Positions 2,348 to 6,280 are shown, numbered from the stretch's first letter. The stretch is 6,280 nt of DNA from a virus (IMGVR_UViG_2690315994_000034), one strand, 5' to 3'. The notes: generated by a model not told the origin, from the letters alone. Numbers and translations are program-made.

Positions 2348-2380
2348 ACTGATATTGCGGGCCTAGGTCGGCCAACCGAA

Positions 2381-2402
2381 AAGCGGGAAACCCTACCCGC
2401 TT
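2381..2402 (+). terminator. Hairpin between integrase and next gene; weak terminator candidate
   Basis: AAGCGGG (2381-2387), 8-nt loop, CCCGCTT (2396-2402); flanked by a partial outer palindrome GCCAA..TTGGC. No T tract follows, so terminator function is doubtful. Confidence 0.25.
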
Positions 2403-2440
2403 GGCTCGCAAATTAATTTAGGGGCGTTGAGGGCAGCGCA

Positions 2441-3428: not shown

Positions 3429-3508
3429 TCTATGCTTACAACTGTATTTCTATCCAGTGTTAACGGTTGCAAACTAGCCTCCACAAACTTAGAAACAGTG
3501 GAGGCAAC

Positions 3509-3793
3509 ATGCAAAACCCCATTTTTACCCCGCCTAATCCTGAACAGCGCCGCACCCTTTTAGAAGAGTACGGCTTTAAGTTCGATCGTCGAATCCGTGA
3601 AGAAGAATGTAGCGAGATCACCAGCCTTTCCCGTTCCAGCCGTTGGAAAATGGAGCAGCAAGGACGATTTCCGCCACGCTGCCACTTCGGCCGCAATAGC
3701 TGTGCCTGGCTTCTTTCTGATGTGCTCTGGTGGGTTCGTAATCCGCCTGTAGTAGAGAACGTCAATAACCCATACAGCCGCAAATCTGCTTAA
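3509..3793 (+). CDS. alpA: AlpA-family phage transcriptional regulator / excisionase-like HTH protein (94 aa)
   Basis: Likely start ATG 3509 with GTGGAGG 4 nt upstream; ORF-track start 3467 is TTG. Segment ITSLSRSSRWKMEQQGRFPPRCHFGRNSCAWLLSDVLWWVRN fits the AlpA pattern (LSRSTIYR..G.FP.P...G.R...W...EV..W). Confidence 0.8.
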   Translation: MQNPIFTPPNPEQRRTLLEEYGFKFDRRIREEECSEITSLSRSSRWKMEQQGRFPPRCHFGRNSCAWLLSDVLWWVRNPPVVENVNNPYSRKSA

Positions 3794-3813
3794 TTAACTA
3801 CAGGTAATCAGAG

Positions 3814-4524
3814 ATGAAAAAGATTAATGCCCTCAACGGGCAGGGATTCGCTCACCCTGAAGCCAGCCAGAGCGATATTTTAATTAATCACAAATCGGAG
3901 CCGCGTATCGATTCCCGCGTTATTTCAGAGCGAGCCGGAATACAACATGAAAGCCTAAGCGCGACGATTAAATCGCACCAGAGCAGATTGCGCGAGCTGG
4001 GATCACTGCCTCGTCAGTCACTCAAGGAATTAACCGATTTGAAATCGGGAAAATCCGGCCGAAAGCGTGGGCGTCCTGAGATTAGTTATCTGCTGAATGA
4101 GCCGCAGCTCGACTATCTGCTGCGTATCACCCGAGGGCGTGATCCTGAGCGTATTAACCAGTTCAAACTGGATGTTACGAAGGCATTCACTAAGCGCCGC
4201 GCCGCAGAACCTATCCGCCGTGAGTACCTGCCTGGCTATCACGAAAGCCGCGACAGATTAAAAGCTCTGGGCGCACAACGGCACCATTACATCAATCTGG
4301 CCCGCGCTGAAAACCGCGTGGCTGGTTTGTCTGATGGTGAACGCGGTACCGCAGACGAACAGCAATTGGGGCTGTTGGTAGTGATGCAGAAAATCGAACA
4401 GGCGGCCTTTAATGAGGCGGTGCGTAATGACATGAGTCCAGGCGATGCGGTGCGTGAGGTTGCCCGCCGTATGGATGCGTTCGCCAGCCTGATCACTTCA
4501 TCGTCAGTGTTGGAGATTCGCTGA
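3814..4524 (+). CDS. Rha-family phage regulatory protein-like (236 aa)
   Basis: ATG 3814, stop TGA 4522-4524. Segments DSRVISERAGIQHESLSATIKS and ISYLLNEPQLDYLLRITRGRDPERINQFKLDVTKAF resemble the Rha N-terminal domain as I remember it (..TSSR.IAE.FGKRH..VLR.I.. and ..GY.LT..GF..L.M.FTG..A..FK..YI.AF..). Confidence 0.65.
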   Translation: MKKINALNGQGFAHPEASQSDILINHKSEPRIDSRVISERAGIQHESLSATIKSHQSRLRELGSLPRQSLKELTDLKSGKSGRKRGRPEISYLLNEPQLDYLLRITRGRDPERINQFKLDVTKAFTKRRAAEPIRREYLPGYHESRDRLKALGAQRHHYINLARAENRVAGLSDGERGTADEQQLGLLVVMQKIEQAAFNEAVRNDMSPGDAVREVARRMDAFASLITSSSVLEIR

Positions 4525-4546
4525 TGCGTCTTATGCCTAAAATTTT

Positions 4547-4568
4547 GCGCTCCCCCGTTTGGGGGCGC
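4547..4568 (+). terminator. GC-rich hairpin just downstream of the Rha-like gene; weak terminator candidate
   Basis: GCGCTCCCCC / GTTT loop / GGGGGCGC, 23 nt after the stop. No clear T tract on the plus strand (TCAAATCC follows). Confidence 0.25.
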
Positions 4569-4663
4569 TCAAATCCTTGTGAGTTAGCCGCGTGCTATTT
4601 GCATAACTCAATCAGGGTTGCGCAGAATTTGAGCCGACGAAATTCGCACGTACAAATTAACCG

Positions 4664-4680
4664 CGTACGTTTAACGTACG
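4664..4680. promoter_or_regulatory. 17-bp palindrome CGTACGTTTAACGTACG; candidate operator
   Basis: Perfect 8-bp arms around a central T; contains two CGTACG hexamers; a further ACGTAC at 4648-4653. Same core as the palindromes at 5247-5286. Confidence 0.4.
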
Positions 4681-4832
4681 GACATCTCAACCCATTGAAT
4701 CATTTTGATTATCGCGAAACGCGAGAATTGGCGAGCAACGAACACGAACAGTATTCGGGTTCTCCTGAACATCAACACTGCTTAGGTTCAGAGGTTCCGA
4801 CGAAAAACGTAGAGAGCTGCGAAGATAACCAA

Positions 4833-4847
4833 CCCTCTTTAAGAGGG
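4833..4847 (-). terminator. Candidate terminator of the leftward RHH/small-peptide operon
   Basis: Palindrome CCCTCTTTAAGAGGG. On the minus strand the hairpin is followed by TTGGTTATCTT, and it lies 33-47 nt downstream of the small-peptide stop. Confidence 0.3.
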
Positions 4848-4879
4848 CCAGTTAAAGGCATTACAGGGAGTAACCCTGA

Positions 4880-5032
4880 TCAGCCATTTTTACAGCCTTT
4901 CAGTACATCGCCAGGGTTAACGGAACAGTCAGGCTTCCAAAGCGAATCGAAAAAACCGAATTGGTACAAAATCCATAAAATAATTAGTGCAATGAGAATG
5001 CGACCTGGGAGGGTATGTAACAGCCAGTTCAT
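4880..5032 (-). CDS. Small single-pass membrane peptide, 50 aa (not in the ORF track)
   Basis: Hand-translated minus strand: ATG at 5030-5032 preceded by GAAGGAG (5041-5047) with 8-nt spacing; stop TGA at 4880-4882. Product MNWLLHTLPGRILIALIILWILYQFGFFDSLWKPDCSVNPGDVLKGCKNG has an 18-residue hydrophobic stretch and a short polar tail with two Cys. Starts 21 nt after the RHH gene stop. Confidence 0.5.
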   Translation of the reverse strand: MNWLLHTLPGRILIALIILWILYQFGFFDSLWKPDCSVNPGDVLKGCKNG

Positions 5033-5053
5033 TATTTTATCTCCTTCTGAAAT

Positions 5054-5245
5054 TCAACCTTTTGGCTCTATGCCGCGCCGCTTTAGTTCTGCCCTAGCTA
5101 ATTCTTTAAACCAGTTACCAAGGGTTAGACCGTCAGAAGTTGCCGCCTCATTTACTTGTTGGCGTAGCTCTTTACTGATTCTGATTTGGAAGGTTGGAGA
5201 CCATCCCTCACCGCGTGGCGATTTATCGCGCTTTAATGTTGACAT
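5054..5245 (-). CDS. Ribbon-helix-helix (Arc/MetJ/CopG-like) DNA-binding protein, 63 aa
   Basis: ATG at 5243-5245, only possible start (in-frame TAG upstream); AGGAG 12 nt upstream. PTFQIRISKELRQQVNEAATSDGLTLGNWFKELARAELKRRG fits strand / helix / G-x-T turn / helix of RHH repressors, compared by eye with P22 Mnt and Arc. Confidence 0.5.
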   Translation of the reverse strand: MSTLKRDKSPRGEGWSPTFQIRISKELRQQVNEAATSDGLTLGNWFKELARAELKRRGIEPKG

Positions 5246-5267
5246 GTACGTACGTAACTCCTATTAT
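5239..5267 (+). promoter_or_regulatory. Near-consensus sigma70 promoter, rightward
   Basis: TTGACA (5239-5244), 17-bp spacer, TATTAT (5262-5267); predicted start near 5274. The -35 box overlaps the RHH start codon on the opposite strand. Confidence 0.5.
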
Positions 5268-5286
5268 CATTGCTGTTACGTACGTA
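5247..5286. promoter_or_regulatory. Twin palindromic operator candidates TACGTACGTA x2
   Basis: Identical 10-bp perfect palindromes at 5247-5256 (inside the promoter spacer) and 5277-5286 (at the predicted transcription start), spaced exactly 30 bp. Confidence 0.5.
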
Positions 5287-5303
5287 CAATATCAGTAGGT
5301 ACA

Positions 5304-5346
5304 GTAAAAAGCAAAGCCCCGCAAGTGTCGTTACCACTCGCAGGGC
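5304..5346 (-). terminator. Strong hairpin, terminator-like on the minus strand
   Basis: GCCCCGCAAGTG (5316-5327), loop TCGTTAC, CACTCGCAGGGC (5335-5346): 12-bp stem with two mismatches. On the minus strand it is followed by TTTGCTTTTTAC; on the plus strand by TTCTAACC (poor). Lies in the leader between the promoter and gene 5385-5588. Confidence 0.4.
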
Positions 5347-5384
5347 TTCTAACCACCAACGATAGAAAGCGTATCGAGGTAGCT

Positions 5385-5588
5385 ATGAGAAATCATACCA
5401 CACACCCGCAAGGGCGGGACTCGCACAACCTGAATAAATACATCTGGCGTTTTATCGCCCTGAGCACGGCACAACCGCGCGTGATTACCATTGAGGCCAC
5501 CAGCGAACAGGAAGCACGCCAGCAATCTCCGGCTGGCTGCGTGATGGTATTCGCTGCCCGTATTCGTCAGGGGTCACATCATGCGTAA
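5385..5588 (+). CDS. Small protein, 67 aa, ends in ARIRQG motif; possibly Ash-like/Icd-like
   Basis: ATG 5385 with GAGG 5 nt upstream; stop TAA 5586-5588 overlaps the next ATG (ATGCGTAA). Shares YxWRF..EATSEQEARQQ..FAARIRQG with the C-terminus of the next ORF. The family name is a vague recollection, not a verified match. Confidence 0.55.
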   Translation: MRNHTTHPQGRDSHNLNKYIWRFIALSTAQPRVITIEATSEQEARQQSPAGCVMVFAARIRQGSHHA

Positions 5589-6048
5589 AAACCGCTTGCA
5601 AAAAATTATCACGGGGCTGTATGCTTCCCCCGTCGCCCACATGGCGACCGGGTTTGACAGCCTGAATACATCTGGCGGACAGCCGCCCACATCCGATAAG
5701 CGGTTTTTTTGTGTCCGTAAACCTACCCATACCCGCATTATGGCGGGGCGTAACGGGGGAGCCTTTGTGCTCGCTGGTTTCCAGATGACCAGTCTGTCAA
5801 CCCTGTTACGTCTCGCCACCATGTTTGACAGCGTAGTAGCGAGACTCCTTAAAATTCATCTGGGAGCCTTTCACATGGCTGTATCCGCACGCCCTTATTT
5901 TGTCTGGCGCTTTATGCAGTGCCAGGAAAAACAAACCTCACTCTTTACCGTCACGGCAGCAACAGAACGCGAAGCCCGCGCCCAGCTGCCGCACGCACAT
6001 CTGATTTTTGTCGCCCGTATTCGTCAGGGGGAAACCTATGCACAATAA
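5581..6048 (+). CDS. Protein of 155 aa whose C-terminal 50 aa are paralogous to the preceding gene
   Basis: ATG 5581 overlaps the upstream stop and sits 7 nt after GGGG, the same arrangement as the next junction at 6038. C-terminus YFVWRF..TAATEREARAQ..FVARIRQG. N-terminal 98 aa are compositionally odd (R/G/S/T-rich), so the real gene may start at ATG 5875 (57 aa). Confidence 0.45.
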   Translation: MRKNRLQKIITGLYASPVAHMATGFDSLNTSGGQPPTSDKRFFCVRKPTHTRIMAGRNGGAFVLAGFQMTSLSTLLRLATMFDSVVARLLKIHLGAFHMAVSARPYFVWRFMQCQEKQTSLFTVTAATEREARAQLPHAHLIFVARIRQGETYAQ

Positions 6049-6280
6049 AACCACGCCGGACGCAGCCGCCGCCGCGCTCACTACGCTGATGCATGCGCTT
6101 ATTGATATTGAATGCACAGCAGGGCTTGCACAAAAGGAAGAACGGGAAGAATACACATTGTTCGCCCTGGAATGCATCCGATACACCGCCACGCGGTCGC
6201 TGAATGACGCTAAAAATATTCTTGTTGCTGATTGTGAAAATGGGGAGGGTGCCCCTATTAAGTTGTCAAGCATGTTATGA
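6038..6280 (+). CDS. Hypothetical protein, 5' part only (runs off window end)
   Basis: ATG 6038 overlapping the upstream stop (ATGCACAATAA), AGGGGGAAA 4 nt upstream; ORF-track start 6008 is TTG. 81 codons with no stop before the window ends. Confidence 0.5.
   Translation: MHNKTTPDAAAAALTTLMHALIDIECTAGLAQKEEREEYTLFALECIRYTATRSLNDAKNILVADCENGEGAPIKLSSML

Follow-up and report, generated by a model that had tools for sequence, protein, structure and literature searches.

A probable P1/P4-type immunity cassette between coupled Icd-like genes at the start of a satellite replication operon

The viral sequence IMGVR_UViG_2690315994_000034 (6,280 nucleotides; hereafter the window, with all coordinates counted from its first letter) contains two overlapping open reading frames (ORFs) for Icd-like proteins: icd-like 1 at 5385–5588 and a longer, eta-like ORF at 5581–6048. 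A preliminary description of the window treated them as small paralogous genes, each coupled to the next. Our analysis indicates that this region is probably the start of the replication operon of a satellite of the phage-inducible chromosomal island (PICI)/P4 type, in which an Icd-like leader gene is separated from the downstream genes by a 457-bp immunity cassette resembling those of P1 and P4. At each gene junction, a stop codon and a start codon overlap behind a G-run located within Icd-like C-terminal codons. The C4 RNA cassette had been missed by the preliminary description, and makes up two thirds of what was there called the second gene.

A C4-type antisense-RNA cassette within the second ORF

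The first 98 codons of the ORF at 5581–6048 (plus strand, 155 aa) overlie a complete C4/CI-type module, in the order predicted internal promoter, a1, b1, C4 RNA gene, a2 and b2. The C4/CI-type antisense RNA gene (5736–5823, plus strand) matched Rfam RF01695 (clan CL00128) over the full length of the model with 72.6 bits (gathering score 45), and the Rfam entry for the a1 and b1 targets of C4 (c4-a1b1) matched 5619–5668 with 46.8 bits, relative to a gathering score of 46.7. An isrK match at 5632–5710 (35 bits) was under its gathering score. The stretch from 5644 to 5833, which takes in a1, b1, c4 and a2, shares 78% DNA identity with the c4 region of P1, and GCCACCA at 5815–5821, in the 3' part of C4, resembles the end of the P1 C4 RNA. 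RNAs of the C4 family are cut by RNase P from a longer transcript, giving a stable form of about 77 nt that acts as a repressor of the genes downstream. The putative constitutive promoter inside the ORF (5596–5625, plus strand; TTGCAA at 5596–5601 and TATGCT at 5620–5625, 18 nt apart) was aligned to the P1 promoter P1c4/P51b (TTGACC...TATAGT for P51b). In the cassette alignment, the -35 TTGCAA is invariant and the -10 is either TATGCT or TATTCT.

The leader that carries the first C4 targets (5619–5710, plus strand) holds a1 (TTGACAG, 5654–5660) and b1 (CATCTGG, 5669–5675) and includes, on the same strand, a seqA/IsrK-like hairpin region ending in GCGG-U7 (5700–5710); the predicted fold of this leader did not reach significance (z = -1.1). 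The downstream targets (5825–5866, plus strand) are a2 (TTGACAG, 5825–5831) and b2 (TCATCTGGGAG, 5856–5866). The single-stranded a' segment of C4 (CTGTCAA, 5794–5800) is complementary to TTGACAG at both positions, and the loop b' (CCAGATG, 5781–5787) is complementary to CATCTGG at 5669–5675 and 5857–5863. Pairing at b2 spans all of TCATCTGGGAG and covers the ribosome-binding site (RBS) GGGAG, which lies 8 nt before the ATG at 5875 of a nested Icd-like gene, icd-like 2. This gene thus has b2 at its RBS; icd-like 1, like its counterparts in most E. coli elements, is not preceded by a C4 RNA.

We compared 21 distinct cassettes of the window type, 85–95% identical to the window. They are nearly invariant outside the six a/b sites, and those sites change jointly. 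Two a types (TTGACAG/CTGTCAA and TTAGCAG/CTGCTAA) and seven b types occur among them, and in every row of the predicted b'–b2 duplexes the cognate pair is the most stable. This three-way covariation is explained only by RNA–RNA pairing and points to several immunity specificities, like those of P1 versus P7; the antisense system looks functional.

The same evidence bears on whether the region holds just two ordinary paralogous protein genes in tandem, encoding 67 and 155 aa, and no RNA element. Both ORFs are open, and both are coding sequences (CDS) in related genomes annotated by the Prokaryotic Genome Annotation Pipeline (PGAP). However, the Rfam C4 and a1b1 matches over their gathering scores, the homology to the experimentally defined P1 c4 locus, and the covariation of loop and targets make this reading extremely improbable, as does the restriction of the Icd-like model to aa 107–149 of the long ORF. 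The second gene therefore does not stand as a plain small paralogue, since its first 98 codons overlie the C4 RNA gene, its targets and a likely promoter. The closest model is a nested pair like P4 eta/kil, arranged around the CI RNA, rather than two tandem protein genes.

Further repeats touch the RNA elements. The 13-nt sequence AATACATCTGGCG is repeated exactly at 5437–5449, as Tyr-Ile-Trp-Arg codons of icd-like 1, and at 5665–5677, over the b1 target. Through it, pairing of the C4 loop could extend to a site in the mRNA of icd-like 1; the b1 leader might otherwise be derived from a 5' fragment of icd. An 11-nt perfect inverted repeat is formed by 5587–5597 and 5698–5708. Its first arm lies upstream of the predicted internal start site, so it would be present only in transcripts from the upstream promoter, and it could pair with the seqA/IsrK-like 3' arm and U-run as a promoter-specific antiterminator. 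A 10-nt exact repeat, GGGAGCCTTT, links C4 helix 1 (5757–5766) to the icd-like 2 RBS (5862–5871) and might permit alternative pairing in the unprocessed transcript.

Conservation of the Icd-like proteins

Both ORFs exist as first delimited, and both match the NCBIfam model NF033153, 'host cell division inhibitor Icd-like protein' (curated cut-off, 25 bits). The 67-aa product of icd-like 1 (5385–5588, plus strand), the first ORF of the rightward operon, scored 69.8 bits at aa 19–62. The long ORF, which starts 8 nt inside the end of icd-like 1 and ends as an Icd-like domain, scored 52.3 bits, with the match covering aa 107–149 only. Its Icd-like share is the last 57 codons, from the ATG at 5875. 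These correspond to the nested icd-like 2 (5875–6048, plus strand, 57 aa), which has its own RBS (GGGAG, 5862–5866) and start codon and is the counterpart of P1 Icd and P4 Kil.

The Icd-like segments of the two ORFs are 41% identical over 49 aa (BLASTP E = 3e-12), while the DNA encoding them is merely 49% identical. P1 Icd aligns with both window copies, and residues W21, R22, F23, E41, E43, A44, R45, P49, F56, A58 and R59 are invariant in the window copies, P1 and relatives; several invariant Icd residues use at least two synonymous codons in a set of 122 sequences. The products of icd-like 1 and icd-like 2 are paralogous proteins of the Icd/Kil family. The paralogy of the two genes is as had been claimed, but the C-terminal motif attributed to them is confined to the last 57 codons of the second ORF. 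Of the two families that had been suggested, Icd-like and Ash-like, only the first is borne out: a Pfam scan gave no match for either ORF, Phage_ASH included. A search of solved structures found no relative.

It is possible that the Icd-like ORFs are leader peptides for which only the act of translation matters and the peptide has no function, as for orf45 of the Salmonella isrK locus, where the nucleotide sequence is conserved and the peptide varies (PMC4825925). The position of Icd-like ORFs, always first in the coupled chain, would fit this. However, the invariant residues from W21 to R59 persist despite varied synonymous codons, and variable sites in the Icd-like parts show a third-position excess (29/59, p = 0.009; 32/69, p = 0.017). 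In addition, P1 Icd blocks cell division (PMC8201110), and over-expression of P4 Kil kills, according to the P4 passages of PMC10111431. We therefore consider functionless Icd-like peptides improbable.

The shared 18-nt block as ribosome-binding site and recombination joint

The 18-mer GCCCGTATTCGTCAGGGG occurs exactly twice in the window, at 5556–5573 and 6013–6030 (plus strand), as first reported for the ends of the two genes. No third copy was found in the window when up to 3 mismatches were allowed, and 0.01 matches would be expected by chance. Beyond these 18 nt, the direct repeat can be followed over 29 nt in total (83% identity), and the starts of its two copies are 457 nt apart. The block codes for ARIRQG and ends in a G-run. 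Codons are identical at 6/6 positions within it, compared to 8/15 of the identical residues outside it.

Each copy serves as the RBS of an overlapping gene. At the first junction, GGGG at 5570–5573 lies 7 nt upstream of the ATG at 5581, and the overlap with the TAA of icd-like 1 (5586–5588) is 8 nt. At the second, GGGGG at 6027–6031 lies 6 nt upstream of the ATG at 6038, with an 11-nt overlap to the TAA at 6046–6048. The gene coupled in this way (6038–6280, plus strand, 80 aa) matches PHROG 5146/2512, of unknown function. The sequence GGGGAGGG runs again near the end of this gene (6243–6280), which ends in ATGA at 6277–6280; the stop/start coupling chain therefore probably continues past the end of the window.

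The comparison set was drawn mostly from viral contigs with a degenerate DNA pattern, and a narrower Icd alignment, used as a query, added 13 genome loci. Among 87 distinct Icd-like 3' junctions, a start codon overlaps the stop in 85, by 4–20 nt and mostly by 8 or 11, and a purine run ends 6–7 nt before the overlapping start in 73. The G-run had been proposed as the Shine–Dalgarno sequence for the stop-overlapping ATG, and these counts agree with that proposal, as do the P1 icd/ant1 junction (GGGGGG, then TTT, ATGA) and the P4 kil/epsilon junction (GGAGG-N6-GTG). Other genera, among them Pectobacterium, Rahnella, Enterobacter and Rosenbergiella, have ...FAGRLPVQE/VE in place of the ...ARIRQG tail, with LPVQE or LPVE as the last residues. 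There, the radical change from Gly to Glu goes with a change from GGGGG to GGAGG, and the overlapping start is kept. That the purine run and overlapping start persist despite the amino-acid change gives direct comparative evidence that the nucleotides of the block are kept as an RBS.

A different explanation for the 18-nt identity is that it is only the footprint of recent recombination or gene conversion, and that the G-run has no RBS role. Modules do reassort exactly at the block, cassette-free alleles exist, and synonymous diversity is low in the block (0.28 bits, compared to 0.81 at other invariant residues; Mann-Whitney p = 0.02), a difference to be read with the majority of the sequences having been retrieved by the motif itself. 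None of this accounts for the purine run and overlapping start in genera with QE or VE tails (Pectobacterium, Enterobacter, Rahnella) and in P4, or for their presence in P1, where icd is reported to be apparently necessary for ant to be expressed (P1 annotation; PMC8201110). In 112 of 115 sequences, the Gly is encoded by the rare codon GGG. A footprint without any RBS role therefore seems to us a poor explanation, with little chance of being correct.

The block nevertheless also behaves as a joint. Codons after Gln-Gly track the downstream module, and nearly all combinations of the Icd body types MVFA-, AVFA- and LIFV-ARIRQG with at least 6 downstream modules were found. An in-silico deletion joining 5246–5573 to 6031–6280 matched real elements across the junction at 93–97% identity, which indicates that the 457-bp cassette behaves as an insertion/deletion bounded by the two block copies, with copy 1 as its left edge and copy 2 as its right edge. 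The same 457-nt spacing occurs in 11 of 80 listed viral contigs, in line with the repeated coupled modules of the preliminary description. We suggest that the block is identical in both copies because it encodes the ARIRQG tail, the next RBS and the module-exchange joint at once. The G-run of the block varies from 4 to 8 G in many loci, and near position 3630 of locus L057 an extra G puts icd out of frame, perhaps through slippage at the joint.

The icd-like 1 region is found in 2249 of 5426 complete E. coli genomes, where it is annotated as Icd-like, and the cassette in 119 of the same 5426 (at least 80% coverage). Among 135 loci with Icd-like matches, 101 have icd only, 16 have the icd-C4-icd arrangement seen here, 8 have C4-icd and 10 have two serial cassettes. 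In the serial loci (L004 at 3485–4499; also L042, L057, L065, L086, L136 and others), a type-A cassette with an Ash-matching ORF is followed by one of the window type, giving two immunity RNAs per operon.

The long frame through the cassette and a proposed mechanism

The frame of the long ORF has no stops between 5581 and 5874, compared to 4 and 7 in the other frames, and about 2% of shuffled versions of this stretch have an open frame. In 40 of 43 modules, the frame of the downstream icd runs across C4 without a stop, and it is also open in type-A modules (about 54% identical) and in P4. Upstream sequence was available for 20 distinct cassettes, and in every one of them the preceding Icd-like ORF closes with ...ARIRQG-x-H-x-stop and an ATG that overlaps this stop shares the reading frame of the nested icd; one further cassette, L046, has a frameshift in the G-run. 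Some b1 types have lost 1 nt, for which a 1-nt insertion compensates, placed in some cases about 20 nt farther downstream and in others in the b' loop; both routes restore the long frame. The 1-nt indels of E. coli strain ST130 were considered as random frameshifts, and this was rejected, as they are located in the co-varying b1 and b' sites.

Under the mechanism we propose, the weak constitutive promoter at 5596–5625 would give a short transcript that is processed to C4 RNA. This RNA would pair with a2 and b2 and block translation of icd-like 2. Expression of the downstream genes would require this translation, both for coupling and as a shield against Rho, so that the replication genes stay off in the immune state. 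When the regulated upstream promoter at 5239–5267 fires, ribosomes would translate icd-like 1, re-initiate at the ATG at 5581, cross the RNA cassette in the 155-codon eta-like frame up to the Icd-like domain, and re-initiate again at 6038. Expression from the upstream promoter would thus escape C4 control. On the P4 analogy, we consider such a translated bypass likely.

Several points weigh against this scheme. The internal promoter has 8 of 12 consensus matches and was absent from the output of the consensus promoter scan, and the regulatory steps as a whole rest on sequence comparison and on analogy with P1 and P4. The pattern used for retrieval demanded F[AV]ARIRQG, which biases estimates of block conservation. 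Translation of the N-terminal part is inferred only from maintenance of the frame and from P4, and the cassettes are close relatives, so that counts of frame maintenance are not independent events. The frame is closed by stops in the P1 and E. albertii C4-icd modules, and in the closest E. coli relative, strain ST130, PGAP labels the long ORF 'frameshifted'. Finally, third positions hold 16 of 63 variable sites in the N-terminal part of window-type cassettes and 68 of 203 in type A, without excess. Combined with the lack of a Phage_ASH match, this means that the N-terminal amino-acid sequence is not conserved as a protein. The first 98 codons evolve like an RNA gene, and if they are translated, selection would be on the act of translation and not on the peptide.

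These observations raise the question of whether the cassette is autonomous and 5581–5874 never translated, with the ATG at 5581 a by-product of the junction and the open frame inherited by chance. The real genes would then be icd-like 1, the C4 RNA and the 57-aa icd-like 2. The missing codon-position signal and Phage_ASH match, the in-frame stops in the P1 and E. albertii modules and the ST130 label all agree with this, and cassettes diverged by just 5–15% could have kept an open frame. Chance inheritance sits less well with the absence of stops in this one frame, its openness in the more distant type-A modules and in P4, the two frame-restoring ways of offsetting the b1 deletion, and the stop-overlapping ATG invariant in 20 of 20 cassettes. 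In P4, moreover, translation of eta prevents termination, and nonsense mutations in eta cause it (Forti 1999, via the P4 passages of PMC10111431). We therefore regard an untranslated cassette as rather unlikely, and retain the translated eta-like frame in our preferred model.

Upstream control region and genomic context

A divergent gene at 5054–5245 (minus strand, 63 aa) encodes a regulator of the ribbon-helix-helix type, YlcI/YnfO- or HicB-antitoxin-like, with weak matches to HicB, to YlcI_YnfO_N and to an Arc-like PHROG entry. PGAP names its homologues 'YlcI/YnfO family' or 'HicB family antitoxin'. A sigma-70-like promoter, presumed to drive the rightward operon, lies at 5239–5267 (plus strand; TTGACA-17-TATTAT, 11/12 matches), and a perfect 14-nt inverted repeat (5245–5258, TGTACGTACGTAAC; 5275–5288, GTTACGTACGTACA) flanks its -10 hexamer. 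This repeat is probably the operator of the rightward operon. The promoter and inverted-repeat region (5239–5288) overlaps the start of the divergent gene, whose product likely represses the rightward promoter. By analogy, 5239–5267 would act as the regulated upstream promoter, in the role of P4 PLL.

The leader of icd-like 1 contains a 15-bp hairpin (5313–5349) whose minus-strand reading scores as an intrinsic terminator. A hairpin of different sequence occupies this position in loci L003 and L004, a possible sign of covariation. The roughly 530 nt at 4525–5053, from the Rha-like gene to the ribbon-helix-helix gene, gave no convincing ORF, Rfam match or notable repeat, and a mechanically called ORF at 4524–5588 was dismissed as spurious. 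An int-alpA RNA motif (RF02996) at 2356–2424 (plus strand; 61.2 bits, gathering score 35.8) sits between the integrase gene and the following ORF.

The island adjoins yhdJ. Its closest relative has genes for an integrase, an AlpA-type regulator, a primase, a capsid, a portal and a terminase, which marks it as a capsid-encoding PICI-type satellite. In such elements, the rightward operon usually opens with an Icd-like gene that is coupled to its downstream neighbour and transcribed away from a small ribbon-helix-helix gene.

Comparison with known systems

The nearest parallel is P4, whose ORF sizes we checked against the P4 sequence. One open frame in P4 contains the C4/CI RNA (74.9 bits), an isrK-like element and an a1b1-like element. 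Kil is the last 65 codons of that frame (NF033153, 76 bits), and Eta is the 199-aa frame beginning MMM, of which residues 22–146 are Pfam 'Ash'. Both P4 and the window have a long ORF that starts before an internal promoter, spans the C4/CI-family RNA in the same frame (Ile-Met codons on AUUAUGG) and ends in a nested Icd-like protein with its own start. The P4 stop and next start overlap by 8 nt with the RBS in the last codons, and in both systems coupling also joins the long ORF to its upstream neighbour (in the window, by the 8-nt overlap at 5581 seen in 20/20 cassettes). The P4 passages of PMC10111431, citing Forti et al. 1999 (PMID 10464191), describe a constitutive promoter inside eta whose transcript is terminated via CI/seqA interactions and processed to the immunity RNA, and an upstream promoter that is insensitive to immunity because translation of eta prevents Rho-dependent termination.

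There are also clear differences from P4. The upstream partner in the window is a complete second Icd-like gene, whereas in P4 it is an alpA/vis homologue. The Icd-like tails of the window read ARIRQG and that of P4 ARLPVVE. P4 has sid/psu/delta, while the window is a PICI-type island next to yhdJ. Phage_ASH (PF10554) scored 82 bits on P4 Eta and 44 bits on a type-A cassette; unlike these, neither window 5581–5874 nor the whole ORF had a match at E <= 1. The window ORF is therefore an analogue or a divergent relative of P4 Eta, and not a member of the Ash family.

The P1/P7 immI region (c4, icd, ant1/ant2) has the same order of a1, b1, c4, a2, b2 and icd, with homologous a2/b2 positions; the P1 record annotates the promoters, a1, b1, c4, a2, b2, icd and ant1. 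As in the window, P1 b2 is at the icd RBS, and P1 icd ends in CAGGGGGG right before the overlapping ant1 start. The window ATG at 5875 (MAVSARPYFVWRF...) aligns within a few codons of the P1 icd start. P1 a' is CTGTCAA, as in the window, but P1 b' is TCACTAAC, compared to CCAGATG here; this difference predicts an immunity specificity other than that of P1. In P1, unlike the window, two stops interrupt the long frame across c4, an upstream icd copy is lacking, and the downstream gene is an antirepressor.

The isrK-orf45-anrP locus of Salmonella Gifsy-1 has a seqA/IsrK-like leader, a small ORF and an AUGA stop/start overlap, and translation of orf45 is needed for the downstream gene (PMC4825925). 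The window resembles it in its sub-threshold isrK match and in a small ORF coupled to the next start. However, the short IsrK RNA activates translation in trans whereas the C4 RNA of the window is predicted to repress, and the Icd-like peptides are conserved while the orf45 peptide is not.

Homologues of CI/seqA have been noted in the 'Bro zone' of PICIs and of helper-embedded PICIs, where the zone is inferred to give immunity (relevant passages of PMC10111431). Satellite class and immunity inference are thus the same as here. Those 'Bro zone' passages do not describe the tandem Icd-like layout, the 18-nt joint, the cassette insertion/deletion or the a/b types.

Annotation and significance

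No RNA feature is listed under the matches in RefSeq, where these loci are given as two 'Icd-like' CDS, one of them sometimes frameshifted. In PHROG, the families matched by these proteins carry the label 'transcriptional repressor'. In the P4 record (L139), a CDS at 8168–8584 named 'cI gene product / transcriptional repressor' covers the CI RNA and the kil DNA. The 'transcriptional repressor' label of PHROG 6196 and 1743 probably derives from this P4 cI annotation, and the database labels look outdated. Pfam 'Ash' corresponds to the DNA of the seqA/CI RNA region, which lacks a codon-position signal and evolves like an RNA gene.

Taken as a whole, the locus is a variation on two known designs, eta/kil-CI of P4 and c4-icd-ant of P1. 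What is new here is the full Icd-like gene as upstream coupling partner, the cassette bounded by direct repeats and the range of specificity types. More tentatively, and as an idea we would sooner doubt than assert, the 18–19-nt Icd tail (GCCCGTATTCGTCAGGGG) might be a selected linker, both RBS and homologous-recombination joint, at which PICI/P4-type satellites insert, remove or stack self-contained 457-bp immunity cassettes, each with a promoter, targets, C4 RNA and nested Icd. With at least 7 b and at least 2 a types that would not cross-react, and the translated eta-like frame, coupled to the upstream Icd gene, as an override, this would form a modular, combinatorial system of self/non-self recognition between satellites.

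Recognition of the cassette explains how this satellite class can keep its replication operon off. As the a/b types are readable from sequence, mutual immunity of the elements becomes predictable. The locus is also a natural example of one coding tail serving as protein sequence, as the RBS of the next gene and as a recombination joint. These findings extend the well-studied biology of P1 and P4 and overturn none of it.

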